IMG/VR virus record: IMGVR_UViG_3300030061_001171 | DNA: 64,000 nucleotides | DNA from: an uncultured virus (IMG/VR IMGVR_UViG_3300030061_001171) | Taxonomy: Duplodnaviria > Heunggongvirae > Uroviricota > Caudoviricetes | Strand: one strand, 5' to 3' | Shown here: positions 17,101 to 35,150 of the stretch, one piece after another | How positions within the stretch are numbered: the first letter of the stretch is position 1 | Layout: each line of letters opens with the position of its first letter | The notes under the pieces: model-generated | Databases searched by the model: none | The model's input: only the letters and a program-made list of their open reading frames with translations | Told to the model about the DNA's origin: nothing | Program-made: the position numbers and the translations under genes

Positions 17101-20100
17101 GCTGATAGTATTTTTGAAGATATCGGTGAATTAGATAACGCTAGGCTTAACTCGTTTAAGAATACAGATAAAAGTAGCTTTATTAGAGCTATGGAACTTG
17201 TTCCCTTAATGACATCTAAAGACGGTATGTTTAATGTCTTTAGGAGAATGGAAACATTACGACGTAACTTACGTGGTGAAGATATCATTGATACTGTAGA
17301 TTTGATTACAGATTTTAACGAAAACATTAAACCTATTTTAGACGAGATTAAACAAGCAAAGTGGAATAAAATGGTTGCGGACACTCGGTATGATCCGAAC
17401 ACTTTTGTTAACGAACAGAACATTAGCTCTAATCCTCAAAGTGTTGAGGCCGAATTCGCTAGAAGCGATCAACAGACTACATTTGCTGATATTGAAGATA
17501 GCTCATCATTTATTGTTAACGACGTTGAGTTAACAGCAGACCCTAGTGGTCCTCAAGCATCCTTTGATGTAGAATTAGAAATAAATCACGCCATGTCACG
17601 ACGAACTGAAGGCAACGAGCAGGGTTCTGGTTTAAACAGCATTGACGGAGTATTTTCAGACGATTTCTTTAACGGTCAAAGTGTAGCACACGGTCGTTTC
17701 TTAGGTATTTTGCAAAACCTTGAAGCAGAAGGAACGATTAACTCAAGCGATAAACTTTTACTTAAAGCTGTATTCTCTGATAAAACAAACTCAGGTCTTT
17801 TACAAAAGTTGTTTGAAAAAGAAGTCAAAGTTGAAACAGACCCTGACATCAGCGGAGGACGAGCAGATGCTTCTGTAGAAAGAAGAATTAGAATCGCTAA
17901 AGATTTATCAGAAAGCTTTAAAGATATCTCAGAGTTTGGAGCCGTGGGTGTTATTCTTGAAGAACTTGGTCACCTTATTGGTCAAAGAATGAGCGAAGAA
18001 GGAATGACTGGTTTCCTTACTAGAGCTAGAGAAATGTTAAAAACAAAAGATGGTTTTGATAAGTTCTTAGAAGCCGAACGCCGTATATTTGGTGATCCAG
18101 AAAATAGAATTAACTATAAGGATCGAAAAGAAGAATTAATTGGTAATATAAAATCCGAAAAAATCGATAACTTAGAATTATTTGGACCTATGTTTGCTAT
18201 GGCTGTTCTTCTTGGAGACGATGTAAGAGCGTTTATGAAAGGCGAGGATGGTAAGCTTTTAAACGAAGGTCACAGAATGGCTAAACATTACATCACTCGT
18301 TACAACCATTATAAAGACTTTGTAGATACTAATATACCTACCTTTATTGAAGCAACTGGTTTTGGTAAAATGGTAGATGAAAATCTTACTAATATTACTG
18401 ACTTTAGTGGTGTTAGGGGTTCATCTAAGAGTGTTAGGAAACGTAAAACATCTAGTGAGATTGCAGATGATTTACCTCCTAACGAATTTAGTAATGAAGG
18501 CCCAAAGAAAAACTTTAGGCACGAAGAAAATGACGTTGATCGTATTGATAGGATTATCGAAGAAAATACTCATGAAGGTTTCTTTTATCCTCAAAACATT
18601 GATACGGACTTAAATAAAATACAAGCCGTTAGTCGTTTTATGGAATCTAAGATTAAACAAGTTGGTTCTGGTCAACTTGTTGATAGTCCGTTTGCCGATA
18701 TTATTTCTGGTATGTTACTTGGTAAACTGTCAAGGCAAACCGCCGAACGACTTATAGAAAATGTTGCTCAACCGTTCGGCTCTAGGAAGTTTGCCCTTCT
18801 TGGTGAAACTGATAAACTCAGCGGTACTATTTTATTCTTGCTTCAAGGCATTGATACTAAGTCATTGATTTCATCTAGCGCATTCGGCACTAACCTTCCT
18901 ACTATACAGGGATTAGGTCTTCACTTAAAGGCTGTCTTTGAGCCTTTAATGAGTGGTTTGTTAAATATGAAGGTAGCAAACTTTACTCCCGGTATGGGAA
19001 GAAACGGATCTCCTTACTCGCCCTATGAAGCATTTGTTAATATGTTCTGGGAAATAACGATGAATAGAGATCCTCGTATAGGGGATAAATACGGAAAAGA
19101 AATTAAGGGTTGGCAAGGACGAGAAGCAGCCATGCAAAGAGCGCAAAAACTTATGTCAAACATGGCTGAAAAACAAGGTCAGACCGTTGATTTAGATGAT
19201 CCTAAATTAGATAATCTTCTTAACCGTATTGTTGATTTAGTTGAAATGTGGTCTAATCCAGAAAACGGTGTATGGAAACAGATTCTTGCTGCTCAGGTAG
19301 ATAGCAATGTGTTTGATGTTAAACTCGCGGATCGTCTCCAAACTGAAGGAGTTGTGCCAATTAAACTATCTGATTCTACATTTAGAAACGATGGTACAGA
19401 CGGCATCCAAGCTAGAGAATTATTACGAAATGCTATTTCATCTCTTGTTGAAAGAGAACTTGTTAAAAGCGATTTAATTGAAGAAGATTTATTTAAAGTT
19501 ATTTTTGCAGATTCTTTTGAAGGCGCGGATATTGACGGACCCACACGTATTAACATGACCAGACTGGCTGACATTTATAATAACGAATACGTTAATAAGT
19601 TTACAAACAACAGTAGTCGAGCGTTTAAAGAACTATTAAACGATATTAAAAGTGGTAAGTTAACTAAGTCAAAGATCTTATCTGAAGAAGAAATAAAAGT
19701 GTATAATAAACACATAAGCGAACAGATGGAACGTACTGAAAATCAGCAAAAGATGATTGAATCCATTCAAGATAAACGAATGAAAGAACTTCAATCTTCT
19801 CAGATGAGAACGTCAGACTCAGTAGTTAATAAACTTGCTGATCTTGTTTCTGAAGGTTATATGCAGAAATTTGGATCAAGTGCGTATTCCTTCATTGGAG
19901 ATAAATTCTTATCTACTGCTGATATGTTTGATTCTCCTGAAATTAGAAAATACTTAAACTTAGATCCTATTGAAATATTTACTTCAGTTATGCGTGGTCA
20001 AGCTGCTCAAGCCTTTGACCGTCAAGTATTTGGAAACGCTTTAGGCATGAGAGGATTTGGTATTGGCGATCTAATTAATAGTATTGATACTTATTTTAAT

Positions 20101-21945
20101 CGATCTCCTACTGAATATAAAGATATTATGCTAAACTCTCTTATGCAACAAGAGGGAAATAAACGTGGCTTAACTGGTACTGAAAAAACTAAATTTAAGC
20201 ACGCTTTAAATTACATTAAAAAGACGTATCAGCTTGGAGTCGGAACATTAAAATGGGATGATAAAGATGCAACATCTATTGGTTTCATTAACATGCTTAA
20301 TAAACTCGGTCAATTAGGAGCAGCCGTTAGCGTTGGTCCTAGATTGGCGTTTGCTGCTATGTTGGAAGAAACTCCAATGTCTGTCATTGGTAGCCTTAAA
20401 GCTAACCTAACGGCTATGAATAAATACATGGGAGAAAACATTAGAGTTTTACAGAACAAAGATGAATCTAGAGAATGGCTCCAAGGATTAGGTTTTATTA
20501 CTCAAGATTTAATGTACGAAGCTAACGTTGTGTTATCTAAGATTGGTTTAGATGATAGCAGGGGTATTTCTGAAGGTGGTAATGAGCCTCTAAAGATTGA
20601 TCAAATGATTAAAAGAATTTATAAATTTACTTCAACGGGTTTGGATACTCAGGTTCAGCACAACAGAGCATTCGGTGTCCGAAAAGCAATTACTGATATG
20701 GATCAATTGTTTTACCGAATGACAGATGAACATTCTATCATGATTGATAAAGACGGTAATGAAACCTTTATTTCTCCTAAAGAAGATAAACTTGTGGCTA
20801 CCTTTGATGACTTATACAATATGTTTAAAGGAGTAGACATAAGCAAATACTCTAACTCGGATTTAAATGCTGATCTAAAACAATTAGGATTAGGGGCGGA
20901 CATAAGAAACTTAGTTATGGATATGCTTAAAAACGGATTGTTTAGTGAAGATCTTGCTCCTATATTTAAACACATGTGGAGAAAGTATGGAGATGACATT
21001 AGGCAAAAAGGAATTCCTTTTGATAAAATGTTAAATGATGTTACTTTTGATTATAACTCAGGAGCAGAAATTAGAGCTAAACAGCTACAAGTTATTAACG
21101 CATTTAGAGAAATTATGTTCTTAGCTGCTACTAGGTATGCTAAACAACCCTCGTTGTCCGAGCATCCCGCAACTGGAGCAAGTGCTTTAGGTCCGTTTGC
21201 TAACTTGGCTACCTCTCTTACTACGTATTCATCCACTGTTTACGGAGGATTGCGTAAGGCTGGTTACGCTGGTATGGGCCTTATGGCTAGTGCGGTGATG
21301 GCACACGCTCTGTCTGGTTACATGTACTATAAACTCATTCAGCTTCAAAACTCAAAGAATGTAGATGAAATGTGGGCTGAAATGCAACGAGATCCAATGC
21401 AAGAGTTACAAGAAGCTATTATGTCTGTTCCGTTCTTTGGCATGAACCAGATGGTCATCGCCACCCTCTTACAGGTTCTCCGTGGTCAACGTCCGCAAAA
21501 CACGCAGATCTACAACCTTGCGGGTATTGCTATGGTTAACCGTATGCTTCAGTTACCTACCAGAGTTATCAATGCTTTTGCTTCGATTAACGAAGGTAAT
21601 ACACTAAAGGGTGCAGCTAATGTTGCTGCTATTACTCCTCTTCCGTACTTTGCTTTAGTTGCAGCCGGTATCCGAAGTGGAGAGGGGTTCTTAAATAATA
21701 ATGAATATGACTTTAAGTATTGGTCTCCTTATGAATCAGGCCGTAAAGTTAAGCGTAGCCCTAAAAAGAAATTTGTACGCAATATGAAACCTTCGGCTCC
21801 AACGCCTCAGAGACAACCCCAAGCTGCCCCCACTAGTGAAGGGACAGGACTGACGGGAATGCTTAATGGATTAGCACAAGAGTATTTAAAACTTGAAGAC
21901 GGTGTAAAGAAGAGTTTAGACAGGCGTTTGCTTAAACCTAAATAA
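8116..21945 (+). CDS. Giant internal virion/ejection protein (gp16-like position), 4609 aa, with single-subunit RNAP-like motifs and a zincin-like motif
   Basis: Uninterrupted 13.8-kb ORF; Gly/Ala-rich hydrophobic segments near both ends; EEFDADSSG, KAIFKSPTMTDLYQAG, NVFDS, ILEELGH motifs (see findings). Confidence 0.75.
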   Translation: MPIDFNSENYSKEATEFYEKLRRAEYEKNIAPRTLSDVMSEQLLSDNIGSFIQGSADAAPYIYDTMDSKYILDSFSDVAENLFTPFRVNPVELMEGIRADNDFFTRQIQSIADETDQQRENLGKNEKLEILFQGSPLFTRGVNSALADPENASTYLNSKLFGNIQFATGQRFFDLSNAFDASAYQNAGAAPTFQSVLGKSLNVMGEQANQMKMRMFDKNILEQVIDSLPEDHQLKGVDLDVLFKDQAVQEQIDLANYSPSDNWFTGNLRKMNPFYGEDEYVSYETMFGREDGIDKLLLAEDKSWQGTEDLPGVRDLLAAAIETSDNPQVREYLVKNPHIIEDLKNSKNSVAFSAGLNKRQIEYNIGEFVSRSDGFGVAGTMNMLGYGFTTDPSLPLDILATGVTLGGWALLKGGGRLIQGAAGLSYGIDAALSVKRLNKATNTYETVSRMGRLGTGLRNLNDMVDVGVTKLGRGVENFGDILLNAQRIMPTQIVSELLVPSTLFYFKTGVTKGKGAAGKAKNFYNYLQSGKYLPESTSGKMAYRAVSGAGEGVVWGYLEYEYATSIEDVMNEAFYGEETANAMAYQREQSGAMLQSMLMSGVMGGALAPTIGATFEGVIAAGKALPKATKDIAVGLSESTPFSRNKEPEVSDDVIDKINGKLEEKIAQRNEESRLYRLGQVSKDTLKNIGNRIINNAISGDARIALNLALKDVEFGESETNQTSAVNVLEKEILGLSAKSKRGGLSIKKAVVAVKKALNGERVSPEEFIRRVREDLKQQSTTQKFFIDRKTNFAIEQARQEQQELMGIIEQENVAQKTTDGNEPATAEQVTERQENSNTESDKLITETKKVFDEVEEEVEASKENIEKIENELHKIRTRIKRFKRTGKAGKAKAKEFENQAVKLENKLDELNNILENQLVERVEAVENYKTAVLKKDSENVPFLAGDISDYRKRLKKKLQSDLKGIEGASGAAVMGILGMDNDLINRLMSGPITEEEKAVLMKLKNYDAADSLTEAELNTVRSLIDNDFLESIRGRDISNHEKYFHRLISSGIDPEQAFEAARYYMLAEDLRSIGNNPIKTADEAKIELVKKGLSELEDSDAKIKQFEEAIQKVKDEEDSLLNGDLEKLNFRKRTVERLARAIGIEKVNKKTKEKLIAEVKNKFDKGLSEAEKDSYRKVLSMIGSDSTFFSRESVKRVEGLIEESIKTQEDEIINREINRQLDLDPEYSGLKRKENEVLGPARKTKEETAESMKQFGIEFTEKGRDVLADVPASEFIPENLKAEVKKELDAIRKRQNEIRKEISDRVKQDSKRIIQNKIRLESERIMIESRPPVGFVVPLMRLLMKTSSFLMLQRQKAERVKGSVLEGGFEFDNTISRSDLLGLLATEEMWPLYNKIREMSNGRSDAFDGEVVLAAMKDALYLADKNQSPVFIKSIDDTYNRVFNREIEGTPLFEGEGGVRNQLDFNQEIIDGSIRRAKEWSTLNPNLRYNGEDVTPISIEEWNQNFERRLAKLVETNDKIDSSGLRSPGQIVKRVLDLFNADLPEGLRLKSFDELGGTKDLVSPNRAAAAVVQALTTQREGTSRVTGRRAVAGSRGFVEQASSMGTRRNTKIQERTDSVIADMYSEYDLNDKINHLLKAEYGDIEALYQFVKNFKINPEVIPNRSRDTGMLILPTRAFDSLTDKMPKGIDDAIEANYAHFISSDPAFMSTVHDAVFPMFSSIVVGDAMHFNSRFNIEGTSINPFKGLGWGFPVGIARGGSFQAGVLVASEITFGYKNLFNVARKAYDQKYEKEYGMDFAEFFFGGGLEKLPSEQRKKVQDELFPAITEEFDADSSGSNIMLSIVQGVEGAQALREFFRTILKDLDEEDGTALYDEFIDVNYETVYDQVKKAVIDDLQGDKIDNLLKNNEVELGKYKPSLAMLKKLFEQAEDLDINLKAIFKSPTMTDLYQAGAKTMGDAIYAKFFNKKDVKEKLIKSGLISATDYDSTAILSSSFLGKLFNETAAPNEIAWIKDTLFPNRSGANKITNAKLQEYFNNFKLTREGEIGAGTAIKEDASDLVNAGEQTEAEAVAALEGIVADSEDNDFNTLLKSALGMAKVLTENSFFKDTTQGSKVVASVVDNWLGKVMDNEELKSAIEKGQYDKAKTIYRELATFDTARNIKAQALNSYARQGFKFNKDSFSRMITAMFGGSIKVDDILDNMSPMARRSFEETFYNNLATSDHGRMYVPSGQTMISEKTFRQGEFYSIAEMVNDIDVDLGSLKENIRRLTILDLAIRAAEFTDKLPKIGDEEYTPKTYYDFLNQWEADSQRADQLRAAAIKGLKKVEQNRKVITRSTRENRDELIEKAEILEKMLSKIIDSTGEKRPDRVASVMEEMTGFEETSQVNFLPSAFGFLPKTYTNKFEGAPSGLIRRVQLERSNTVRRLRSLEEARQSFEGTKVSEDPFSLEDFASVSQIPEDLSQIKPLKIRSSVNTNVFDSYVANLDTAPPLPIVAEMTKIELDNFVQNVKNEQITQLQKDGRYDQILLNYYTYSAAQNGLNKNRDIQFKSDEVQDLIDAKKAVQYKNLRNEDLRIALENDIDIQIAQKELDALIDAAIIEKENIVRALTQWGFDAKNRVTDLYSLEGDTIDTIPVKEGVVSVEEAIQHTIYNNDMEAGNLLAWLADDATFLGQILTKEGHVEVVSGKGSDAQIAMNAKVAFAGGDSAALYLALYAMNYAKRHAVQKLLGEDYDVTSLEIAVFSEYWYKKFEGNDVSYLGERHPDLYRKFEETDRATIQDLLDEGTNLASDNFNNDYILKETTRSMPLTEAVANDIKKMFPGIERRLKKQGMTIKDLLMNKSEDSLLDPNKHKVFVNQFGEPTSPHHIKGKARVKLLPVEKLNAVNSIGNKKLFDAIRFAYALDPSGKLPFAKSLSSVIGGHDPFSSRGTSISEVRSNAVMMTQAIKYIMNNKQVEIQKDNRSKVFFGNKSQDAEFLFYLPGTIKSAFDNADNILADSIFEDIGELDNARLNSFKNTDKSSFIRAMELVPLMTSKDGMFNVFRRMETLRRNLRGEDIIDTVDLITDFNENIKPILDEIKQAKWNKMVADTRYDPNTFVNEQNISSNPQSVEAEFARSDQQTTFADIEDSSSFIVNDVELTADPSGPQASFDVELEINHAMSRRTEGNEQGSGLNSIDGVFSDDFFNGQSVAHGRFLGILQNLEAEGTINSSDKLLLKAVFSDKTNSGLLQKLFEKEVKVETDPDISGGRADASVERRIRIAKDLSESFKDISEFGAVGVILEELGHLIGQRMSEEGMTGFLTRAREMLKTKDGFDKFLEAERRIFGDPENRINYKDRKEELIGNIKSEKIDNLELFGPMFAMAVLLGDDVRAFMKGEDGKLLNEGHRMAKHYITRYNHYKDFVDTNIPTFIEATGFGKMVDENLTNITDFSGVRGSSKSVRKRKTSSEIADDLPPNEFSNEGPKKNFRHEENDVDRIDRIIEENTHEGFFYPQNIDTDLNKIQAVSRFMESKIKQVGSGQLVDSPFADIISGMLLGKLSRQTAERLIENVAQPFGSRKFALLGETDKLSGTILFLLQGIDTKSLISSSAFGTNLPTIQGLGLHLKAVFEPLMSGLLNMKVANFTPGMGRNGSPYSPYEAFVNMFWEITMNRDPRIGDKYGKEIKGWQGREAAMQRAQKLMSNMAEKQGQTVDLDDPKLDNLLNRIVDLVEMWSNPENGVWKQILAAQVDSNVFDVKLADRLQTEGVVPIKLSDSTFRNDGTDGIQARELLRNAISSLVERELVKSDLIEEDLFKVIFADSFEGADIDGPTRINMTRLADIYNNEYVNKFTNNSSRAFKELLNDIKSGKLTKSKILSEEEIKVYNKHISEQMERTENQQKMIESIQDKRMKELQSSQMRTSDSVVNKLADLVSEGYMQKFGSSAYSFIGDKFLSTADMFDSPEIRKYLNLDPIEIFTSVMRGQAAQAFDRQVFGNALGMRGFGIGDLINSIDTYFNRSPTEYKDIMLNSLMQQEGNKRGLTGTEKTKFKHALNYIKKTYQLGVGTLKWDDKDATSIGFINMLNKLGQLGAAVSVGPRLAFAAMLEETPMSVIGSLKANLTAMNKYMGENIRVLQNKDESREWLQGLGFITQDLMYEANVVLSKIGLDDSRGISEGGNEPLKIDQMIKRIYKFTSTGLDTQVQHNRAFGVRKAITDMDQLFYRMTDEHSIMIDKDGNETFISPKEDKLVATFDDLYNMFKGVDISKYSNSDLNADLKQLGLGADIRNLVMDMLKNGLFSEDLAPIFKHMWRKYGDDIRQKGIPFDKMLNDVTFDYNSGAEIRAKQLQVINAFREIMFLAATRYAKQPSLSEHPATGASALGPFANLATSLTTYSSTVYGGLRKAGYAGMGLMASAVMAHALSGYMYYKLIQLQNSKNVDEMWAEMQRDPMQELQEAIMSVPFFGMNQMVIATLLQVLRGQRPQNTQIYNLAGIAMVNRMLQLPTRVINAFASINEGNTLKGAANVAAITPLPYFALVAAGIRSGEGFLNNNEYDFKYWSPYESGRKVKRSPKKKFVRNMKPSAPTPQRQPQAAPTSEGTGLTGMLNGLAQEYLKLEDGVKKSLDRRLLKPK

Positions 21946-21963
21946 AAAACCCACAGTATAACA
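21943..21963 (+). promoter_or_regulatory. Candidate phage RNAP promoter (copy 2)
   Basis: TAAAAAACCCACAGTATAACA; its first TAA is the stop codon of the giant gene. Confidence 0.65.
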
Positions 21964-21972
21964 AAAGAGAGT

Positions 21973-22004
21973 GGGAGTCTATAGATTTCTTTCTATAGAC
22001 TCCC
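21973..22004. repeat. Perfect 13-bp inverted repeat followed by AT-rich tract
   Basis: GGGAGTCTATAGA-TTTCTT-TCTATAGACTCCC. Confidence 0.9.
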
Positions 22005-22268: not shown

Positions 22269-22303
22269 TTTCACTGCGGCTATGCCGCTCTCAGGAGTCT
22301 GAC

Positions 22304-22840
22304 ATGTTAAATTACCTCGTTCTAGCTACCCTTCCGTTGTTACCTTTGGATGATACTGATAATGATAATTCAGTAATGGACTACCAAATCTACACTGAGG
22401 GACCACGTACGGTGTACGAGGGGGCTGCTAAACTCAAGTGGGACGAGAACGTAAATGCTTGTGTTGAATACACTTTCGATCTCGTACCGGGACGCTTGGC
22501 GGGATCTGCGATCTCTTCCAATCCGGGTAAACCGCTGCTTCCTTATGATGAAGTTATAATCTCAGACGATGAGATCTATGTTAGCTGGGAGCGGAACCGC
22601 ACTGACTTGTGGCCTACTCCTACGGAGTGCCACCGTAGGTTCCACTTCTTTGTTATTAAAACACAGTTTGATGCGGATGACCTTAGCGCACTCTTGAGTG
22701 ACTGGGGGCCACCTGTAGTAATTGACGTTCCGTGGCCCGGTACTGACTACACCTACGTGTCCCCTTGGGATCTCAATCTGGATATTGTGGTGGACGGTAA
22801 GGACTTGGCAATGCTTCTGGCGGGTTGGAAAATCGATTAG
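22304..22840 (+). CDS. Protein with C-terminal dockerin/EF-hand-like repeats
   Basis: FDADDLSALLSDWG and WDLNLDIVVDGKDLAMLLAGW; hydrophobic N-terminus; SD AGGAG. Confidence 0.7.
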   Translation: MLNYLVLATLPLLPLDDTDNDNSVMDYQIYTEGPRTVYEGAAKLKWDENVNACVEYTFDLVPGRLAGSAISSNPGKPLLPYDEVIISDDEIYVSWERNRTDLWPTPTECHRRFHFFVIKTQFDADDLSALLSDWGPPVVIDVPWPGTDYTYVSPWDLNLDIVVDGKDLAMLLAGWKID

Positions 22841-22855
22841 GGGGTCGGGAATTTA

Positions 22856-22898
22856 CATGGGGGGATATAACAAATTGGCGTAGAATTTCCCCCCTATG
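22856..22898. repeat. G/C-run inverted repeat at the late/early junction (probable genome terminus region)
   Basis: CATGGGGGGA (22856-22865) ... TCCCCCCTATG (22888-22898); gene content switches from late to early here. Confidence 0.5.
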
Positions 22899-22939
22899 CC
22901 CCCCTTCTTTTAATCTGATTCTATGAAAGGAATCAAACA

Positions 22940-23539
22940 ATGTCGTATTCATTCGACTGTTTCTGTACTGCGTTCTCTATGCTTGTTCATGCTATTGCTG
23001 GCGATAAAGCTAGCCTTGACGCAAAAGCCGACAGAGAAAAGGCTGGAAAGCTTGCTCTTGAATTCTTTAAGCAACTGGGACTTGATGTTATTACCCCGCT
23101 TGATCGAATTCGCGGTGCGTGCAAGCACGAGTTGTTTGGCGGCACGGCTGATTACCTTGTAATCCACTTCCCTACACAGTGGATTTGCGTTAAGGGTCGT
23201 GTCTATAGGGTGACTACCATCTGTGAGGTCCATCGGTTTAGGATCGATAAAGCTCAGGACGCAAGAGACTGGGCTTTCGAGATTGAGAAGCCTTGGCGAT
23301 TCCAGACTATTGTTTGGGATAGCGAGACCGGCGAACAAGTTGGCTATGAATTTGAAAGTGACTGCTACGAAGGTGTCACCGATCTTCGTCAGATCATCAA
23401 AGACACTGAGTGGTATCTCACCACTGACATCGACAAGCTCTGCAAAGACATGGCATCAGATATCACTGATGTCGTTCTTGATGAGTTTCGTCGCGTTGGT
23501 TTAGTTGACGAAAACGGTAACTCGACTGAGCGAGAATAA
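22940..23539 (+). CDS. Early hypothetical protein (199 aa)
   Basis: SD GAAAGGA; stop codon lies inside pistol ribozyme 1. Confidence 0.8.
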   Translation: MSYSFDCFCTAFSMLVHAIAGDKASLDAKADREKAGKLALEFFKQLGLDVITPLDRIRGACKHELFGGTADYLVIHFPTQWICVKGRVYRVTTICEVHRFRIDKAQDARDWAFEIEKPWRFQTIVWDSETGEQVGYEFESDCYEGVTDLRQIIKDTEWYLTTDIDKLCKDMASDITDVVLDEFRRVGLVDENGNSTERE

Positions 23540-23597
23540 ACAGCCATTAGGCTCAGAGCGTCGGGCTGTACCCATAACTGGGTACGGCTCGGGTTGG
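23520..23597 (+). ncRNA. Pistol self-cleaving ribozyme 1
   Basis: P1 CUCG/CGAG with loop CUGAGC, linker AAUAAACAG, P2 CCA/UGG, UUAG, pseudoknot GCUCAG, AGCG, 14-bp P3, predicted cleavage G23593/U23594. Confidence 0.93.
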
Positions 23598-23637
23598 ATT
23601 TTGTTTCCACTATCACCCGTTCCCAGAAAGGGACACT

Positions 23638-23871
23638 ATGCCTAAGTATAGCGCAAAAGAAATGGACAAGTTCAGAAACATCGCATCATTCTTCAGAGGG
23701 TTCGACACTACCGTTCGCTCTGGCTCATCAGATGATGCCATTAACATCGTTATCGGAATGGTCAACCGTGACCGTCCGGTTGTCGAGTCCCTCATCAAAC
23801 CACGCAATTCATTTGAAATGCAGAGTGACAGTTGTCCTGAAACTGGCATTGTCTACGGCGATCTTTCCTAA
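23638..23871 (+). CDS. Early hypothetical protein (77 aa)
   Basis: SD GAAAGGGA 5' of ATG; lies between the two ribozymes. Confidence 0.65.
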   Translation: MPKYSAKEMDKFRNIASFFRGFDTTVRSGSSDDAINIVIGMVNRDRPVVESLIKPRNSFEMQSDSCPETGIVYGDLS

Positions 23872-23897
23872 CTCCGTTCTTTGAAAGGAACAAACCA

Positions 23898-24386
23898 ATG
23901 ATTACAATGACCTGCCTTACCACCGAAGAACGTTTCGCTCCTGTGTTCACACAGGACTTCAACGATTCAACATGGGAGGAGGCGGTAGAGCTTGTGTATG
24001 AATGTCTTCGACACCAACACGACGGCCTCAGAGAGGCACGCCGTGAGGCTCAGAAGATGGTTGATGAACAATTGACGGGTCAAAAGCTGACCCATCTTGA
24101 GAAGTTCAAACAACTTCATACACTCACAGCGCAGGCTGCGGATGCGGTGACTTACTGGAATGACAATTTCATGAAGGCACCAGCATGTCGCATCCGAAAC
24201 GTTTCAGAGTGGAAGCTCCACTTCTCAAACGCCTACCGCACGTTGTCACTCAACCCAGAGATTCTCGATAACTTCTCCACTGATGCGAAGTGGGCTATCG
24301 ATAATCTCCGCACTATTGTGTATCAAAACGCAGCAGTGTGCGAGTTCTACTTTGAAGAGTGGGACAACTCGTCTGAGCGAGAATAA
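23898..24386 (+). CDS. Early hypothetical protein (162 aa)
   Basis: SD GAAAGGA; stop codon lies inside pistol ribozyme 2. Confidence 0.8.
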   Translation: MITMTCLTTEERFAPVFTQDFNDSTWEEAVELVYECLRHQHDGLREARREAQKMVDEQLTGQKLTHLEKFKQLHTLTAQAADAVTYWNDNFMKAPACRIRNVSEWKLHFSNAYRTLSLNPEILDNFSTDAKWAIDNLRTIVYQNAAVCEFYFEEWDNSSERE

Positions 24387-24445
24387 ATAGCCATTAGGCT
24401 CAGAGCGGAGAGGCGCACCCTTAACGGGGTGTTGCCTCTCGTTGG
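24367..24445 (+). ncRNA. Pistol self-cleaving ribozyme 2
   Basis: Same core as copy 1 (two substitutions), P3 with different sequence but retained pairing and UAAC loop, predicted cleavage G24441/U24442. Confidence 0.93.
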
Positions 24446-24680
24446 AAAGGAGGTCATGGATGATCTCAGTCACGGACGACGCTTTCTTTCTCGCCTCCGA
24501 AGCCGGTGCTTTGGAGGTTCCGGTACTACTCCGTAGTGCCATCACCCTAACCGATCCACTTGGATCAGGCCCACATGGGCCACGCACCGAACAGACAGGT
24601 GGTTCACTGTCTAGTATTATCCCCATTAGGAAGGCCAGCGTAGGTTCTTCCACTATCACTGTTTGCTTTATACGGAGCAA
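24446..24680 (+). ncRNA. Candidate structured non-coding RNA (multi-hairpin)
   Basis: Six consecutive hairpins directly downstream of ribozyme 2; no convincing long ORF start before 24685. Confidence 0.4.
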
Positions 24681-24684
24681 CAAA

Positions 24685-25224
24685 ATGTTTTACAAAATTG
24701 TTAATGATCGTGCTTTCTGCAACTCCTTCGTGACCATCAAGATCAAGGACAAGGCCATGCGCTACTCCTTTGGTGATCAGGACGCATACCGCCAAAACTT
24801 CATCAAAGATGGGGGAGCGTGGAAGCCAGTGGGTAACATTGTCCTCAGTCCTGACCAGTCTTCGGCAGAAAACGAAGTTCTTCAGGCAATGGTCGATCTC
24901 GATGGTGACAAGGATGCGGTCATCAAGATGGAGCCTTGCGCTGAGTCTCAGCCTCGCACCGTGCGGCTCAAGGCTGTGCGTACTGACCAGACTGTCACTG
25001 ATCTGGGTGATCGCACCATCACTGACCCGGCTCTGATCTATGCCCGCAAGGTTCTGAGCGGCATGAAGCGGTACATCAAGCATGTCTCCGTTATCATCCC
25101 TCTTGCTCACGGGCAGTCTGCTATTTACTCAGCATACCGCGACTTTGATCGCTCATCGTCCTTGGTCATCCGCGACAAGTGGGGTAACTGCCTCTCACGC
25201 CACGAAATCAAGGTAAGCGAGTGA
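24685..25224 (+). CDS. Early hypothetical protein (179 aa)
   Basis: Start moved to ATG 24685 (MFYKIVNDR) after SD GGAG; high-GC codon style. Confidence 0.75.
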   Translation: MFYKIVNDRAFCNSFVTIKIKDKAMRYSFGDQDAYRQNFIKDGGAWKPVGNIVLSPDQSSAENEVLQAMVDLDGDKDAVIKMEPCAESQPRTVRLKAVRTDQTVTDLGDRTITDPALIYARKVLSGMKRYIKHVSVIIPLAHGQSAIYSAYRDFDRSSSLVIRDKWGNCLSRHEIKVSE

Positions 25225-25225
25225 C

Positions 25226-25378
25226 AAGACCCCTCAAGACCTCCCCGCCGAAGACCTCCTCGGTCCATTCCACTATCACACGGTCTCGGACCACCCCCAG
25301 AGAGAGCGGTCTCGGGAGATCCCCGGTAAGAAGCCGTAGGATCCTCCCTAAGATCATCCTCTCTAGGACGGGTCTCGG
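25226..25378. repeat. GC-rich intergenic cluster of short repeats
   Basis: AAGACC at 25226, 25236, 25251; GGTCTCGG at 25282, 25308, 25371; ATCCTC(C/T)CTA at 25341 and 25356. Confidence 0.65.
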
Positions 25379-25493
25379 GTCATCTTTATCATTCAAAGCC
25401 CTCAGACGGCCTCTCCGGGCCTCTGTAGGGATTCTCGGGACTGCCTTGCGTAAGGCGGCCCCTGCTTATTTCTTTCATAAGGAAACTGAACCG

Positions 25494-25733
25494 ATGAATA
25501 TTTGTCTTGAACACGAACTTGAAAGTACCCTTACAGAACTTCTTCGTGAAGACTACGAGGATGAGCTTGAGGGTATCGAGGACATCGATGACTTGTTGGA
25601 AGAGCTTTACGATCATATCCACGCGGATATTATTCCTATTGCTGAGAATTATTTTAGGAACAGCATCCCCGGCTTGACTAGGGAAACTGTTGAAACATTC
25701 GTATCAAACCATGAACCCGAGGAAAAAGAATGA
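25494..25733 (+). CDS. Acidic early protein, Ocr (T7 gp0.3)-like DNA mimic candidate
   Basis: 79 aa from ATG 25494 (SD AAGGA); 25 Asp/Glu versus 4 Lys/Arg; IEDIDDLLEELYDHIHADIIP resembles Ocr [20 protein letters not shown]. Confidence 0.5.
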   Translation: MNICLEHELESTLTELLREDYEDELEGIEDIDDLLEELYDHIHADIIPIAENYFRNSIPGLTRETVETFVSNHEPEEKE

Positions 25734-26065
25734 TACCCGAAGAGTTGGGAACTAAAGTAATCACGAATGAGCAGGGAGGCGTGTCCTTAGCCTCTTATCC
25801 TTTGGATAGCGGAAAGGAGGAACTGTTTAGGGTATTTGTATATGATGATGCTTCGGATTGCATTGGAGCTATCCGCACTTGGAACTTTACTGAAAAGAAA
25901 GAAGCCCTCAAGGCAGCTAAGGAACTTTGCGAAAGGTTCAATAGAGAGAAAGATCACATGAAGAATCTCCTTCGGTACTCTGTAAGAGTCCACCGATTTC
26001 ACGGCCCCGACCTACGGTACAGGTCAGGCCAACCACTGTTTGATTCAATGAAGGAATACCAATGA
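25730..26065 (+). CDS. Early hypothetical protein
   Basis: ATGA coupling on both sides; SD GAGG. Confidence 0.7.
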   Translation: MIPEELGTKVITNEQGGVSLASYPLDSGKEELFRVFVYDDASDCIGAIRTWNFTEKKEALKAAKELCERFNREKDHMKNLLRYSVRVHRFHGPDLRYRSGQPLFDSMKEYQ

Positions 26066-26283
26066 ATCAGAATGCAATTGATACGTACAAGAGATCACAA
26101 GCCTCTTTCACTCGCCCCAAGATCACCTCGGACAGTACTAAGTTGATGCAATTGTGTGTCAAGCTTAGGTGTATTGTCCCTGTGGTGGAGGGTCTAATGG
26201 CAGACGTACGGGAGATCTCTGAGGATATGGATGCTATCCGTAAGAGAATGGAGTACGGTCCCGATTATAAGGAATCTGAATAA
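26062..26283 (+). CDS. Early hypothetical protein
   Basis: SD AAGGA; ATGA and TAATG coupling. Confidence 0.7.
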   Translation: MNQNAIDTYKRSQASFTRPKITSDSTKLMQLCVKLRCIVPVVEGLMADVREISEDMDAIRKRMEYGPDYKESE

Positions 26284-26582
26284 TGATCGAAGAAGAGTAC
26301 GACTACCGTGATCACCATGTGGTGGTCGAGATTGAGTTGATGGAAGACAACCAGAAGATCTGGTACTTCGTAACCTGTCCTGACGGGGAAGAAAGGACTG
26401 TAGATGTCTCCCCCTACGGTAATCAGAATGAACTCGTAAAGAAATGGATTGAGATATTCATGAAGTTTGGGGAATACCCTGAACGTGTCGGGGTTGGTCC
26501 CTTGACTATGCACGATCTTTGTTTGATTGAAATGGGATATGATGCCGAAGCTGCACAAAAGAGTCCTAGAGATTTTAAATGA
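26283..26582 (+). CDS. Early hypothetical protein (acidic)
   Basis: SD AAGGA; TAATG coupling. Confidence 0.7.
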   Translation: MIEEEYDYRDHHVVVEIELMEDNQKIWYFVTCPDGEERTVDVSPYGNQNELVKKWIEIFMKFGEYPERVGVGPLTMHDLCLIEMGYDAEAAQKSPRDFK

Positions 26583-26588
26583 TTACCT

Positions 26589-26622
26589 GAGGTCTGCCAA
26601 TGTGGCGGGCCTCTGTTTATTT
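26589..26622 (+). terminator. Possible intrinsic terminator or processing hairpin
   Basis: GAGGTCTGCCA-ATG-TGGCGGGCCTC followed by TGTTTATTT. Confidence 0.45.
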
Positions 26623-26649
26623 CTATGCCGTAAAGGCAGAAAGACTATT

Positions 26650-26982
26650 ATGTCTAACTACAACACTAGCGTTTCTTCACCCGTCCGTGGCCGCATTACC
26701 CGCAAGGACGGTCTTCCGTTCACTGCAAAGGTGACCTTCTGGATCAACAAGACAGATCCAACGGCCAAGAAAACTTGGGAAGTGGACCTGAAGGGACACA
26801 CCATTCTCGAAATGCTTGATGAAGTTAAGCGAATCGAGAAGAACTACAAGGCTAAGTACGGTATCAAGTGCAGCCTGTGGAAGGTGAACAACGGTCCCAA
26901 CCTGTTCAAGGATCGCATTGAGGACATCAAGAAGTCCCGTCGTGAGTGGGCTGTCGCTCAGGCCGCCGGAGGTGAGCGTTGA
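26650..26982 (+). CDS. Early hypothetical basic protein (110 aa)
   Basis: Start moved to ATG 26650 (MSNYNTS); strongly biased AAG/ATC/CTG codon use. Confidence 0.75.
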   Translation: MSNYNTSVSSPVRGRITRKDGLPFTAKVTFWINKTDPTAKKTWEVDLKGHTILEMLDEVKRIEKNYKAKYGIKCSLWKVNNGPNLFKDRIEDIKKSRREWAVAQAAGGER

Positions 26983-27134
26983 GCGGCTGCTCCACAATGG
27001 AGGTGTCCCGAGTCCCCTCTGAGGCAAACGTCTCAGAGGGGGTCTCCGGGCCTCAGGTAGATGTGGTCACTGGCGTATTGTTTCTTGCGGTAATTGTAAT
27101 TATATGTTATGGTTGCCTAAAGAAGTCAGATTGA
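26979..27134 (+). CDS. Small membrane peptide (51 aa)
   Basis: TTG after SD GGAGGTGA; ...VVTGVLFLAVIVIICYGCLKKSD; contains a long hairpin at 27007-27050. Confidence 0.45.
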   Translation: MSGCSTMEVSRVPSEANVSEGVSGPQVDVVTGVLFLAVIVIICYGCLKKSD

Positions 27135-27156
27135 ATCCCCGATAGGAAGGTAGCGT

Positions 27157-27177
27157 CTAAAAACCCACGTTATAGTA
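27157..27177 (+). promoter_or_regulatory. Candidate phage RNAP promoter (variant)
   Basis: CTAAAAACCCACGTTATAGTA, intergenic, 21 nt before ATG 27199. Confidence 0.5.
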
Positions 27178-27198
27178 ACTACTTTCCAAGGAGATAAA

Positions 27199-27570
27199 AT
27201 GCGTAAGCTAGTTGATCGTGAAGGTTTTGTTGTGGCAGGTTGTTGGGAGAAAGCTACTAACCTTGTAGTGAAAGACAAGGTATATTTAATTGTAGATAGA
27301 ACCCATCAGGATAAGAACCTCAATGAGGTACAACAGTTACACAATAAAGGTGAATTGAATGTACATGATCCTGTTTGGCATCACTTCCCTGCTACTAAAG
27401 AGCAGCCTCAGGGTATGCTCAAGGTATTCCCTAGTATTGCACAGCAGTGGAAGAACCAGATGAATAAGAAGTACATCAAGCCTCACACCCATAAGTTGGA
27501 TAGCATTGACTCATCTAAGTTTAATGTTATCTTGTCTAAGTATCGTTATGAATTTTCAGAAAGTAAGTAA
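27199..27570 (+). CDS. Hypothetical protein
   Basis: SD AAGGAG; 123 aa. Confidence 0.75.
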   Translation: MRKLVDREGFVVAGCWEKATNLVVKDKVYLIVDRTHQDKNLNEVQQLHNKGELNVHDPVWHHFPATKEQPQGMLKVFPSIAQQWKNQMNKKYIKPHTHKLDSIDSSKFNVILSKYRYEFSESK

Positions 27571-27571
27571 T

Positions 27572-27724
27572 ATGATTTGGAAGATTGTACGTAGTGGTTC
27601 TTGGTTCAACGTTGTCGTTGTTTCTACTAACAAGGTGGAGGACGGCTTTAACAATAAGGAAGATGCTGAACGTTTCATGGCACACCTTGAAGCTGAAGAC
27701 GGGAGGGATGTAGCTAATGGATAA
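27572..27724 (+). CDS. Small hypothetical protein (50 aa)
   Basis: MIWKIVRSGSWFNVV...GFNNKEDAERF; packed between neighbours. Confidence 0.6.
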   Translation: MIWKIVRSGSWFNVVVVSTNKVEDGFNNKEDAERFMAHLEAEDGRDVANG

Positions 27725-27923
27725 AGAAATTGCAAACGATTTGGATACTATTTCCAACAAAGCGTTTATCGCTTTTCAGTATTACAAAGAAGAATGGGCT
27801 GACTATTCTAAAGAAGAAATAAATAAGTTTATTCTTCGTGATATTAATAAGATTCAAGAACTAATTGATGGCATTAAACTTAAAATTAAGGAGGCTTCTG
27901 AATGTGTGCCTACGGTAGAGTAA
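27717..27923 (+). CDS. Small hypothetical protein
   Basis: SD GGAGG; overlaps neighbours by a few codons. Confidence 0.6.
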   Translation: MDKEIANDLDTISNKAFIAFQYYKEEWADYSKEEINKFILRDINKIQELIDGIKLKIKEASECVPTVE

Positions 27924-28144
27924 TAGTAAAAATAGAATACAGAGGAACCATAATGGAAAGTATGTGGTTCCAATCCTACGAAGAAGAACTATCAGATAGT
28001 CACAAAGAACACATTAAACACCACGTTAGTGAACACTATCCCGGTGAAGAAGATCACGTTCGTATCCTTCACCGTCTTGAAGACATCTCAGCAGAAATCA
28101 TGGGAGAACCAGATGAGTTTGTTTCTAGTGCCAATGAAGATTGA
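27902..28144 (+). CDS. Small acidic hypothetical protein
   Basis: SD AAGGAGG 7 nt upstream. Confidence 0.6.
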   Translation: MCAYGRVIVKIEYRGTIMESMWFQSYEEELSDSHKEHIKHHVSEHYPGEEDHVRILHRLEDISAEIMGEPDEFVSSANED

Positions 28145-28790
28145 TTTTGTTGATAGCATGGGCGGTGACTTGACTACTGTTAACTGCGCCCGTGTCTCGT
28201 TTGGTAAGCACGCTAATAAACTTTCCGAGCATGATAAAAGATTGATTACTTATCTTGCTAAACATGATCACTTCACTCCGTTTACCCATAGTACTATAAC
28301 TTTTAGAGCAAAGGTTCCTATCTTCATTGCTCGTCAGTGGTTCAAGCATACAGTAGGATTTTCATACAATGAAATGTCTCGTCGTTATATTGACGAGAAT
28401 CCTGAACTGTATGACATTCTAGACACATGGAGAAAGAGACCTAACAAGTCAATCAAGCAGGGATCTTCAACTGAATACGTTGACCTAGAATCAGATGAAA
28501 CACAAGATGATATCTTGGCTCACATGCTAGGTGGTATTGATATGTATAATTTTCTAATTGAATCAGGTGTATGCCCTGAACAAGCACGATGTGTCTTGCC
28601 TCAGAATGTAATGACTGAGTTCATTGTAACTGGTAGTTTGTCAGCGTGGGCTAGGTTCTACAAGCTACGCTCTGACTCACACGCACAGCAAGAGATTCGT
28701 TGGTGTGCTAATGAGATTGATAAACAAATTAGAAACTTACCTCAGTTTACTTACTCTTGGTTCGCGCTTAAGGAGAACAGCAATGGCTAA
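28134..28790 (+). CDS. thyX: Flavin-dependent thymidylate synthase
   Basis: VNCARVSF, HFTPF, PIFIARQWFKHTVGFSYNEMSRRY, PEQAR.VLP, HAQQEIR; start placed at MKIDFVDSMG. Confidence 0.95.
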   Translation: MKIDFVDSMGGDLTTVNCARVSFGKHANKLSEHDKRLITYLAKHDHFTPFTHSTITFRAKVPIFIARQWFKHTVGFSYNEMSRRYIDENPELYDILDTWRKRPNKSIKQGSSTEYVDLESDETQDDILAHMLGGIDMYNFLIESGVCPEQARCVLPQNVMTEFIVTGSLSAWARFYKLRSDSHAQQEIRWCANEIDKQIRNLPQFTYSWFALKENSNG

Positions 28791-28893
28791 AGGTTTGAAG
28801 ATTGTAAAAGATTTTAAAGGTAAAACGTCTGGTCGCCCCCGACGTTCAAAGAAAAATAAATATGGCATTAGAAAACGTGGAAGAAAGAATTAA
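28783..28893 (+). CDS. Tiny basic protein (36 aa)
   Basis: SD AAGGAG; MAKGLKIVKDFKGKTSGRPRRSKKNKYGIRKRGRKN. Confidence 0.55.
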   Translation: MAKGLKIVKDFKGKTSGRPRRSKKNKYGIRKRGRKN

Positions 28894-29392
28894 AGGTAAG
28901 GTCATTAAAGGATATGGTATAGCTAAACTTATAGGTTGGCCTACTATTAATATTCTTAATGAAACAAATACTTTTCCTAGTATTTACTATATTTCTCATA
29001 ATACTTATGGTCAAGGAGTTGCAATTGTATTAAATAAATCTATTGAAATACACTTTTTAAAAACAGTAAATAATTTTACAGATGAATACATTAGTGTAGA
29101 CATATTGTTTAATCTGTTTAAAGATAACATAAAAGCAATACCTAATAATATAATAGGTATTTTATACAAAGGAATATTGGAAGAAAGAAAAATGTCCCCG
29201 AAAAACAACAATGACTTTAGAAAACTTGATCGAGCAAAGGATAAGATTAAGTTACCTAAAAAAAAGCAAAGATCACAATGGTCTGAATCAGCTAGTGATA
29301 ATTTAAATCTACCTGATGATTCAGTCGATATTCATCCAGATGATTGGCTTAATTTTGATGATAATTCAAATGAAAGTGAAGGTGCTGATTGA
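28862..29392 (+). CDS. Riboflavin kinase-like (divergent) domain with charged C-terminal extension
   Basis: IKGKVIKGYGIAKLIGWPTINI and SIEIHFL resemble GxVVxGxxxGRxLGFPTAN and xEvHll of flavokinases; exact start uncertain. Confidence 0.55.
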   Translation: MALENVEERIKGKVIKGYGIAKLIGWPTINILNETNTFPSIYYISHNTYGQGVAIVLNKSIEIHFLKTVNNFTDEYISVDILFNLFKDNIKAIPNNIIGILYKGILEERKMSPKNNNDFRKLDRAKDKIKLPKKKQRSQWSESASDNLNLPDDSVDIHPDDWLNFDDNSNESEGAD

Positions 29393-29517: not shown

Positions 29518-30498
29518 ATGTCACACGAAATTACTGCTACCGACTCCGCCGTCTTTCAGGGAACCAAGGCTTGGCACGGACTGGGCTATGTTGTTGAGGA
29601 TGATATGAGTCCTCTTGCTGCTGTTGAAACTGCTGGCCTTGATTGGTATGTTCACAAGACTGACGGTGTGTTTGGTTACACCGACAAGGGTACGACCGTA
29701 ATGGATCACAAGCGTTGCATGACATACCGTGAAGACACCAAGGAATCACTTGGTTATGTGTCTCAGGACTACAATGTCTTCCAGAATGTGGAACTTGCCA
29801 AGCTTGCGATGTCTGTCTCAGAGAAAGCTAATGTTGAGTCTGCCTTCTCTATGATGGGCGGTAAGCGTATCGTCCTGCTACTCAAGGGTGGCAGCATTGA
29901 AGTTGGTAACATGAACGATGTGCTTGATGATTACTTCTGCCTTGTCAACGGTCACGATGGTAAGTTCTCTCTTCGTGCCTTCGGTACGTCAGTGCGAGTG
30001 GTGTGTAACAACACGCTTCAGATGGCACTGTCGCAGGCCAGAGGTCAGACCTATTCGATCAGTCACAATGGTGACTTCGAGACTAAGCTTGATGATATGC
30101 GTCGAGCGTTGGGTCAGTACACCAAGTCACGCGACTGGTTTGCTACTACCGTTAACGAACTTGCAAAGAAAGAAGTTAATACTAATGTTCTTGAAACGTT
30201 CTGGATGGAAGCATTCGCAATGACTGTGGGTGATGATGTCCTTAAGGATCGTGACCGTTCGATCAAGGAGTCCATCAAGTTCCTTGAGAACGTCAAGGTT
30301 ACCTTTGAACAAGAACGTGACGCACTTAAGGTGCCTGCTTCCATGTGGCTTGCTGCTAATGCAGTGACCAATTACGTGCAGCACAAGACCGCTGACCGTG
30401 GACGCAAGGCTTCATACGAAAGTCGGGCTGGCGACGTGCTTATGGGCAAGAGGGCTGACCTCTCCCGTAAGGTGATGAAGCACGCCATGACCGTGTAA
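29518..30498 (+). CDS. DUF932 / TIGR03299-type phage-plasmid protein
   Basis: AWHGLG, AGLDW, VNGHDG, VRVVCNNTL, NAVTNYVQH motifs. Confidence 0.88.
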   Translation: MSHEITATDSAVFQGTKAWHGLGYVVEDDMSPLAAVETAGLDWYVHKTDGVFGYTDKGTTVMDHKRCMTYREDTKESLGYVSQDYNVFQNVELAKLAMSVSEKANVESAFSMMGGKRIVLLLKGGSIEVGNMNDVLDDYFCLVNGHDGKFSLRAFGTSVRVVCNNTLQMALSQARGQTYSISHNGDFETKLDDMRRALGQYTKSRDWFATTVNELAKKEVNTNVLETFWMEAFAMTVGDDVLKDRDRSIKESIKFLENVKVTFEQERDALKVPASMWLAANAVTNYVQHKTADRGRKASYESRAGDVLMGKRADLSRKVMKHAMTV

Positions 30499-30526
30499 TC
30501 CCCCCGCCCCCTTCGGGGGGCAACCT

Positions 30527-30599
30527 GCCCTCATAGCTCAGTTGGTAGAGCATTCGGCTTTTAACCGATCGGTCGCAGGTTCGAGTCCTGCTGAGGGTA
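30527..30599 (+). tRNA. tRNA-Lys(UUU)
   Basis: Acceptor GCCCTCA/TGAGGGT, D arm GCTCAGTTGGTAGAGC, anticodon loop CT-TTT-AA, T arm GCAGGTTCGAGTCCTGC; CCA not encoded. Confidence 0.95.
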
Positions 30600-30603
30600 T
30601 TAT

Positions 30604-30688
30604 GGCTCTGTGGCGGAATTGGCAGACGCAACGGACTTAAAATCCGTCGAGGGTAAACCTCATGGGGGTTCGAGTCCCCCCGGAGCTA
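30604..30688 (+). tRNA. tRNA-Leu(UAA)
   Basis: Acceptor GGCTCTG/CGGAGCT, anticodon arm ACGGA-CT-TAA-AA-TCCGT, long variable arm, T arm GGGGGTTCGAGTCCCCC; CCA not encoded. Confidence 0.95.
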
Positions 30689-30704
30689 TTGAAAGGAGGT
30701 GCTT

Positions 30705-35132: not shown

Positions 35133-35150
35133 AAAACCCATGCTATAACA
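35130..35150 (+). promoter_or_regulatory. Candidate phage RNAP promoter (copy 3)
   Basis: TAAAAAACCCATGCTATAACA, upstream of the SSB/replication block. Confidence 0.65.

Follow-up and report, generated by a model that had tools for sequence, protein, structure and literature searches.

Two pistol ribozymes at gene boundaries ahead of the RNA polymerase gene in an uncultured, T7-like marine phage

Two Ribozymes in a Block of Small Genes

The stretch of DNA analysed here, referred to as the window (64,000 nucleotides; IMG/VR record IMGVR_UViG_3300030061_001171), belongs to an uncultured marine T7-like podophage and carries two elements of the pistol class of self-cleaving ribozymes, a class that reportedly goes back to Weinberg et al. 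in 2015. A map of the open reading frames (ORFs) places all the long ones on the + strand. A block of approximately 25 small ORFs extends from a 4609-amino-acid (aa) ORF, which ends at 21945, to the gene encoding a T7-type single-subunit RNA polymerase. Within this block both ribozymes lie on the coding strand, between same-strand cistrons and ahead of the polymerase gene, at distances of 7.3 and 6.4 kb from it. The ribozymes, with their helices (P1, P2, P3) and pseudoknot, and the ORFs around them are as follows.

22940-23539, + strand: 199-aa ORF; its last six codons and its stop, TAA 23537-23539, lie inside ribozyme 1
23520-23598, + strand: pistol ribozyme 1 (Rfam RF02679, model positions 1-68 matched)
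Parts of ribozyme 1: P1, 23521-23524 with 23531-23534; pseudoknot strands, 23526-23531 and 23551-23556; linker with AUAAA, 23536-23542; P2, 23544-23546 with 23595-23597; AGCG, 23557-23560
23561-23592, + strand: P3 hairpin of ribozyme 1 (14 pairs and loop UAAC, from the fold)
23593-23594, + strand: predicted G/U cleavage junction of ribozyme 1 (cut 1), between P3 and P2, at model positions 63-64
23604-23616, + strand: motif TTTCCACTATCAC, 10 nt after cut 1, recurring before gene starts in the window and in relatives
23638-23871, + strand: 77-aa ORF between the ribozymes, starting 44 nt after predicted cut 1
23898-24386, + strand: 162-aa ORF; stop TAA 24384-24386 in the linker of ribozyme 2
24367-24445, + strand: pistol ribozyme 2 (Rfam match plus corrected 3' end)
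Parts of ribozyme 2: P1, 24368-24371 with 24378-24381; pseudoknot strands, 24373-24378 and 24398-24403; P2, 24391-24393 with 24443-24445; AGCG, 24404-24407
24408-24440, + strand: P3 hairpin of ribozyme 2 (8 pairs in the lower stem and 6 in the upper, separated by a bulged U; loop UAAC)
24441-24442, + strand: predicted G/U cleavage junction of ribozyme 2 (cut 2), between P3 and the P2 strand UGG
24460-25224, + strand: 254-aa ORF, starting 18 nt after predicted cut 2, with AAGGAGG at 24447-24453 in between

By covariance model, architecture, and covariation, both elements are genuine pistol-class ribozymes. The whole window was scanned with cmscan at Rfam gathering thresholds, and the four matches returned comprise two tRNAs and two matches to the Pistol model (RF02679; gathering cut-off 34.5 bits), which score 63.3 bits (E = 3.5e-9, 23520-23598) and 45.4 bits (E = 4.5e-5, 24367-24436). 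No other ribozyme class was detected by Rfam at E <= 1 between 21500 and 31000. The upper-case consensus of the Rfam model is matched throughout, with the exception of U6, which is A in copy 1, and of the first P3 base in copy 2. The length of P3, 32-33 nt, is mid-range among 69 variants found in other contigs (see below).

The two copies share a 41-nt direct repeat (23520-23560 and 24367-24407) with two differences in its 41 positions, A/T at position 6 and C/T at position 22; the corresponding repeat family, D2, pairs 23519-23583 with 24366-24430 at 85% identity over 65 nt, 847 nt apart. GTTGG follows each hairpin (23593-23597 and 24441-24445). In both copies P1 is CUCG/CGAG, the P1-loop sequence CUGAGC is complementary to GCUCAG, giving a 6-nt pseudoknot, and P2 consists of three standard pairs, CCA/UGG, with a G-A mismatch in the fourth position. 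Predicted folding energies are -34.3 and -36.9 kcal/mol for copies 1 and 2 (z = -4.0 and -4.7; none of 200 shuffles was as stable), and the energy folds of both copies recover P3 together with either P1 or the pseudoknot helix. In each copy a 2-nt G/U junction separates the end of P3 from the start of P2, a feature that defines the class according to Harris et al. (2015, PMC4604425).

A preliminary description of this DNA had noted the repeat, the differing hairpins with a common TAAC loop, and the trailing GTTGG, all of which sequence and folds bear out, and had recognized in them the full pistol architecture. Each part of that architecture was located here: P1, the AUAAA linker, a 3-bp P2, the 6-nt pseudoknot, AGCG, P3, and the G/U junction. 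The check that it had proposed, a search with the Rfam Pistol covariance model, places both copies above the gathering score. Its two cut sites also hold, G23593/U23594 agreeing with the model alignment and G24441/U24442 with covariation.

The 3' end of copy 2 needed correction. An alignment of three sequences (window copy 2, the metagenome variant L045, and copy B of locus L009 in a related phage) gives standard pairs in 97.4% of cells with the corrected end, versus 36-56% when the pairing partners are slid by 1-3 columns. Six pairs are changed on both sides in this alignment, two of the three in P2 (CCA/UGG to ACG/CGU) and four in P3. With three sequences only, this evidence is modest, and it still decides between the two possible ends: the one preferred by the covariance model (24431-24436), at which P3 is unpaired, was discarded in favor of 24441-24445. 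The compensatory changes in P3 that had been claimed from the window's own two hairpins are therefore upheld in part: they are present between window copy 2 and L009 copy B (four P3 and two P2 pairs), whereas within the window the hairpins merely differ.

A terminator scan classed the P3 hairpin of ribozyme 1 as terminator-like on account of a T-run starting 6 nt further on. With those six bases between stem and T-run, it is doubtful that this hairpin works as an intrinsic terminator.

Relatives, Plain Hairpins, and Other Pistols

Relatives were collected by a search for the RNA polymerase, which gave eight viral-contig loci; the loci, and then the whole records, were scanned with Rfam. A near-identical record, G001, repeats the same two Pistol matches and is not independent. 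The others that bear on the ribozyme region are listed with the identity of their RNA polymerase to that of the window.

G003/L009: 70% identity, complete; two pistols, one at each of the corresponding boundaries (65.4 and 49.2 bits)
G002/L006: 93% identity, 99% complete; no pistol (best match 14.7 bits, on the other strand)
G004/L010: 70% identity, complete; no pistol
G005 and G006: 100% and 85% identity; fragments that end short of the ribozyme region

A variant or P1-less pistol in G002 or G004 was considered and rejected, as the former offers only its weak match on the other strand and the latter nothing. Identity between copy 1 and its counterpart in L009 reaches 97.5%, compared with 84-87% in the flanking ORFs; L009 copy A carries U for A in the AGCG block, yet scores 65.4 bits. 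The small-gene block is a mosaic, since its left part (22304-24445) is shared with G003 and its right part (26062-29392) is closest to G002.

Alignment and folding indicate two alternatives for one and the same boundary: a terminator-like hairpin, or a pistol with its P3 in the hairpin's place. Opposite P3, the relatives have plain hairpins of -15 to -26 kcal/mol with UACC or UAAC loops (alignments A1 and A2). At the ribozyme 2 boundary, L006 has a 15-pair hairpin of -25.7 kcal/mol with the same UAAC loop, lying ahead of a conserved start region; the sequence after it is UUAUUUCA, not a plain U-run. At the ribozyme 1 boundary, hairpins of 13-14 pairs with UACC loops are found in L006, in L010, and at a second site of L009; they lead directly into U-runs, and the motif TTTCCACTATCAC follows all three. 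A U-run thus directly follows three of the four plain hairpins. The imperfect hairpins of L009 escaped a simple terminator scan, which picked up only part of those in L006; folding revealed them. The locus offers a clean natural comparison: ahead of the same ribosome site and gene start, two phages have a ribozyme and two sisters a plain hairpin.

Pistols elsewhere show a similar placement. A degenerate core pattern had 9 matches in viral contigs and 88 in metagenome contigs, which reduce to approximately 70 distinct variants; all 20 of the variant loci tested passed the Rfam Pistol cut-off, and in 66 of 69 strict-core variants the four variable pseudoknot pairs are all retained, in 16 sequence combinations. 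For 64 of 68 pistols, a same-strand ORF of at least 60 codons ends between -40 and +28 nt from the ribozyme start, against 15.5 expected from random positions in the same loci and 14 on the antisense strand, numbers that describe a pattern and do not amount to a hypothesis test, since the variants are interrelated and the ORF calls mechanical. Among the 64, the stop codon is the UAA of the linker in eight and lies in the P1 loop in another eight. Downstream of the cut, the 62 evaluable pistols divide into 21 with an ORF of at least 50 codons starting after 13-50 nt, 28 with a conserved non-coding tail, and 13 with neither. This positional rule, stop codon followed by ribozyme followed by ribosome site, shows where to look in other phages.

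The 28 conserved-tail variants (L013, L014, L025, L058, L064, L093, and others) have a GAAATTCGGAGAGG-like tail and then a hairpin. They show no ORF within at least 60 nt and no Rfam family for the tail, which is probably an RNA gene whose 5' end is trimmed by the ribozyme; two of these pistols sit in phage contigs of approximately 130 kb. In the marine contig of locus L060, a tmRNA match (1150-1230, - strand; 52 bits versus a cut-off of 47; cut by the locus edge) lies approximately 500 nt upstream of a same-strand pistol.

Cultured phages of Gordonia, Curtobacterium, Microbacterium, and Psychrobacillus contain candidate pistols in the form of 80-88% sequence matches to the 41-nt core; examples are KR063281.1 60039-60079 and JN035618.1 64016-64054, among others. 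Most core matches in cultured phage records, for example those of Gordonia phages, coincide with no annotated feature, which is relevant to genome annotation. In one marine DNA sequencing run (X3), the core 24367-24407 occurs with at least four upstream and at least four downstream continuations; as it has multiple sequence contexts there, several co-occurring phages or loci share it.

Flanking Genes, Sequence Motifs, and the Phage

The ORF preceding each ribozyme ends in its structure: in both copies the stop codon is a TAA within the AUAAA linker, and the 162-aa ORF, like the 199-aa ORF, reads six codons into its ribozyme in the same stop register. The L009 homologue of the 199-aa ORF (73% identity) ends just upstream of the ribozyme, so the overlap is incidental, tolerated rather than required. 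The 77-aa ORF is 82% identical to an ORF of L009 that is itself located between that phage's two ribozymes. For the 162-aa ORF, no homologue was found in the three relatives compared, and Pfam gave a sub-threshold match only, to YolD (17 bits versus a cut-off of 27.5).

The ORF starting at 24460 heads a run of genes with ends overlapping by 1 to 4 bases, five such ORFs following from 24460 on. It appears composite: its start region (MISVTD...) is conserved in L006 and L009 and forms a separate 25-codon ORF in L006, and its homology to L006 is limited to the last 176 aa, from an ATG at 24697 that has its own motif and ribosome site. Searched against viral contigs, the 24460-25224 protein matched the near-identical contig only. 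None of nine ORFs scanned within 22304-26582 matched PHROG, and none of eight small ORFs between 22065 and 26065 exceeded the Pfam cut-off; the DUF932 match of that Pfam scan belongs to 29518-30498, outside the block. A protein atlas gave no informative match either, so the flanked ORFs belong to no family that could be recognized in these searches.

Two short repeated sequences are of interest in the block and around it.

23604-23616, 24647-24659, and 25267-25279 (window): motif TTCCACTATCAC, on the + strand only, in the small-gene block
L006 1730-1742; L009 1378-1390, 1723-1735, and approximately 3378; L010 450-462 and approximately 1931: the same motif in relatives
2905-2922, 21946-21963, 27160-27177, and 35133-35150: repeat AAAACCCAnnnTATAACA (family D12), three of four copies intergenic

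The motif TTCCACTATCAC often follows a hairpin plus T-run, 10-16 nt ahead of a ribosome-site hairpin, and we take it to resemble the CACTAT core of T7 and SP6 promoters. The copy of AAAACCCAnnnTATAACA at 21946 opens the block, directly behind the 4609-aa ORF, and a 13-pair palindromic hairpin (21973-22004) comes next. This repeat is a candidate phage promoter judged by its placement; its count is not above chance when three mismatches are allowed. A sigma-70 promoter scan gave 20 sites versus 15.4 expected, none of them convincing.

Many gene starts, inspected by eye, have GAAAGG or GGAG between short inverted repeats (approximately 23619-23634, 23880-23895, and 24664-24683 in the window, with matching places in L006, L009, and L010); the ribosome-binding site would lie in or beside the loop of a small hairpin at such starts. 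The interval 25225-25450 is GC-rich, contains four GGTCTCGG(G/A)-like words, and falls inside a 170-aa ORF that starts with GTG. Instead of coding for protein, this interval may represent structured RNA; GC-rich sequence follows the motif in relatives too. Between the 178-aa and 199-aa ORFs there is a conserved 100-nt intergenic element (22841-22939; L006 1034-1120) with G-runs and matching C-runs (GGGGG...CCCCCC).

Features elsewhere in the window define the phage.

988-2682, + strand: large terminase (PHROG match)
30526-30689: tRNAs Lys-UUU and Leu-UAA (the two tRNA matches of the Rfam scan)
30815-33361, + strand: T7-type single-subunit RNA polymerase (PHROG match, E = 3e-147)

Further PHROG matches are to a primase-helicase, DNA polymerase, and ribonucleotide reductase, and, among structural proteins, to a portal-type adaptor, a scaffold, the major head protein, and tail tube proteins. 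The sequencing runs that hold this stretch are marine, hence the assignment of the phage to that habitat, and its size is put at approximately 70 kb because complete relatives measure 68-73 kb. Its RNA polymerase is only 27% identical to that of the best cultured relative, and megablast of 22500-25500 against cultured phages gave no match. Giant ORFs of 4609 aa (8116-21945), 1373 aa (3948-8069), and at least 2176 aa (57473-64000) have no Pfam match; the 1373-aa ORF has no PHROG match either, and the 4609-aa ORF comes after the terminase module. A 215-aa protein (33830-34477) matches sigma-70 region 4 in Pfam (27.1 bits versus a cut-off of 24.1) and a PHROG sigma factor. With a sigma-factor gene directly past the gene for its single-subunit RNA polymerase, the phage may also redirect the host polymerase.

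Proposed Processing of a Multi-Gene Message

The likeliest role of the two ribozymes, as we read the locus, is self-processing of a multi-gene message. Our rough estimate is a probability of 0.6 that the pistols, which are probably active, split the + strand message at cassette boundaries into mRNAs that are separately stable and separately translated. We infer transcription across both sites, cleavage in vivo, the early timing of the block, and the effects on stability and translation. Early genes occupy the corresponding position in T7-like phages.

A + strand transcript over the small genes upstream of the RNA polymerase gene would include both ribozymes. Each would fold its P1, pseudoknot, P2, and P3 and then cut at G/U, at 23593/23594 and 24441/24442. 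The upstream RNA would be left with a compact ribozyme fold at its 3' end and a 2',3'-cyclic phosphate, and the downstream RNA would start with a 5'-OH (at U23594 for cut 1) and a short leader, of 44 and 18 nt respectively, bearing the ribosome-binding site. The transcript would in this way be divided at cassette boundaries regardless of which polymerase had made it. Going by bacterial mRNA decay in general, structure at the 3' end would shield the upstream RNA from exonucleases, and in many bacteria decay that depends on the 5' end would start poorly from a 5'-OH. Pistols cleave at approximately 10 per minute at physiological Mg2+ and pH, by internal phosphoester transfer, according to Harris et al. 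(PMC4604425), a rate that makes co-transcriptional cutting realistic.

A role in making RNA ends draws its main support from the alternation of ribozyme and hairpin at the same boundaries, which also suggests how such ribozymes arise or decay. From this comparison, and from the order of stop codon, ribozyme, and ribosome site, the processing of a message gains some support and is plausible, although the idea itself is not new.

Several points count against it. P2 is limited to three standard pairs, and the outer position of P1 is an A-A mismatch in both copies, a state seen in only 2 of 69 variants. The covariance model puts the 3' end of copy 2 at GTTGCC 24431-24436, leaving P3 unpaired and the score at 45.4 bits. 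The ribozymes are dispensable, as two of the three complete relatives do without them. The early timing of the block comes from gene order alone. Two roles are conceivable for the motif TTTCCACTATCAC, as a promoter or as an RNA signal; in the former case the 77-aa gene might be transcribed on its own, and the message would be less simply polycistronic. Of 20 sequencing runs listed, two are RNA libraries (shares 0.14 and 0.05), and within 22300-25300 these yielded two 151-nt contigs spanning 23981-24259, away from the cut sites and uninformative about RNA ends. The census, finally, describes and does not test.

Part of this evidence could be explained if the ribozymes were active passengers of recombining early-gene cassettes that bring the phage no benefit. 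Their distribution is patchy in the way that a passenger's would be: they are missing from G002, with 93% RNA polymerase identity, and present in G003, with 70%; the block is a mosaic of a G003-like left and a G002-like right part; and one DNA run holds the 41-nt core in at least four other sequence contexts. A neutral element should decay, however, and here the core is nearly unchanged, P2 and P3 change only in compensating ways while the flanking genes have diverged by 13-16%, and the placement with respect to stop codons and ribosome sites is tight. We consider passengers unlikely.

The hairpins of the relatives lend themselves to another account, in which a ribozyme replaces an intrinsic terminator and ends the upstream message, so that the block consists of insulated cassettes, each with its own promoter (TTCCACTATCAC). 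The boundary of ribozyme 1 fits this, being in relatives a GC-rich hairpin that leads into a U-run and then the same motif, and ribozyme 1 itself retains a U-run, 6 nt off the stem; the motif also stands 10-16 nt before ribosome-site hairpins at several gene starts. Against this, the sigma-70 promoter scan gave no good match for the motif, which occurs only three times in the window, with a total count reached by 10 of 100 shuffles; nor does a copy of it follow ribozyme 2, after which a ribosome site comes directly. We doubt that this account holds by itself; it overlaps the processing of a message rather than excluding it.

Two further accounts are very improbable. The ribozymes could be inactive relics, or their cleavage could be gated by ribosomes finishing the upstream ORF: the stop codon falls on ribozyme positions 17-19 in both copies, so that a terminating ribosome would cover P1 and much of the core, and the outer P1 A-A mismatch of both copies points the same way. 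Against this, all conserved Rfam positions but one per copy are matched, a stop in the linker recurs in 8 of 64 related pistols and is therefore tolerated, and cleavage is irreversible and fast, so that occasional unfolding should not block it. Equally remote is the release of an 848-nt two-gene RNA (23594-24441) circularized by a host RtcB-type ligase, for which the end chemistry (5'-OH and 2',3'-cyclic phosphate) would be suitable and for which same-orientation ribozymes flank a cassette in both the window and L009, but no RNA ligase was recognized among the 37 proteins scanned, and circular or spliced products, raised as a possibility for tandem hammerheads, were sought there and not found, according to excerpts of that report (PMC3088659).

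Beyond the splitting of a message by these two pistols, a more general proposal can be put forward tentatively. Pistols and terminator-like hairpins may be interchangeable modules at cassette boundaries, the core plus GUUGG turning an intercistronic hairpin into a P3 and so providing an end and a restart of the message that is independent of the polymerase. A T7-type polymerase is expected to read through many host-type terminators. If the proposal is true, such modules serve host and phage polymerase equally and are a natural counterpart of engineered ribozyme insulators, and the pistol class gains its first defined natural job.

Compared with the pistol class at large, the window copies share architecture and conserved core, and only the long P3 and the outer P1 A-A mismatch set them apart. 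Pistols are frequent near phage genes and present in phage genomes, as Harris et al. state (PMC4604425). What this locus adds is a setting: a tandem pair in a T7-like marine phage, with the stop codon placed in the linker and with relatives that have plain hairpins at these sites. In the literature covered, which did not extend to subscription papers, we found no described role for pistols between phage genes, and a 2019 review treats polycistronic processing by bacterial ribozymes as suggested and unproven (PMC6765202).

The processing idea is already published for hammerheads in prophages and haloviruses, as excerpts of that report set out (Perreault et al. 2011, PMC3088659). In the excerpted text, tandem same-strand hammerheads flank single genes or short blocks in prophages; a hammerhead of the haloviruses HF1 and HF2 lies 13 nt before an early helicase gene, and an early polycistronic transcript of HF2 has its mapped 5' end within 3 nt of the hammerhead cut; and the authors propose that processing of long phage transcripts yields mRNAs of single-gene or operon length (PMC3088659). 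The window resembles these systems in that same-strand ribozymes bracket phage genes of varying identity; it differs in ribozyme class, and in that the hammerheads cleaved in vitro, and some in vivo, whereas the window pistols are known from sequence alone (PMC3088659, in excerpt). The interest of the locus comes mainly from sister phages that alternate ribozyme and hairpin at the same boundaries.

In T7 itself, RNase III sites lie between the cistrons of the early genes. The window shares with them structured intercistronic elements ahead of an RNA polymerase gene, and cutting would likewise leave a hairpin at the upstream 3' end. T7, however, uses a host protein and double-stranded stems, whereas the window RNA would cut itself, leaving a 2',3'-cyclic phosphate and a 5'-OH. 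Insulators of the RiboJ type are engineered and hammerhead-derived, and in them a ribozyme placed before the ribosome site fixes the 5' end of the downstream message irrespective of the sequence before it; the two window ribozymes would be a putative natural counterpart.

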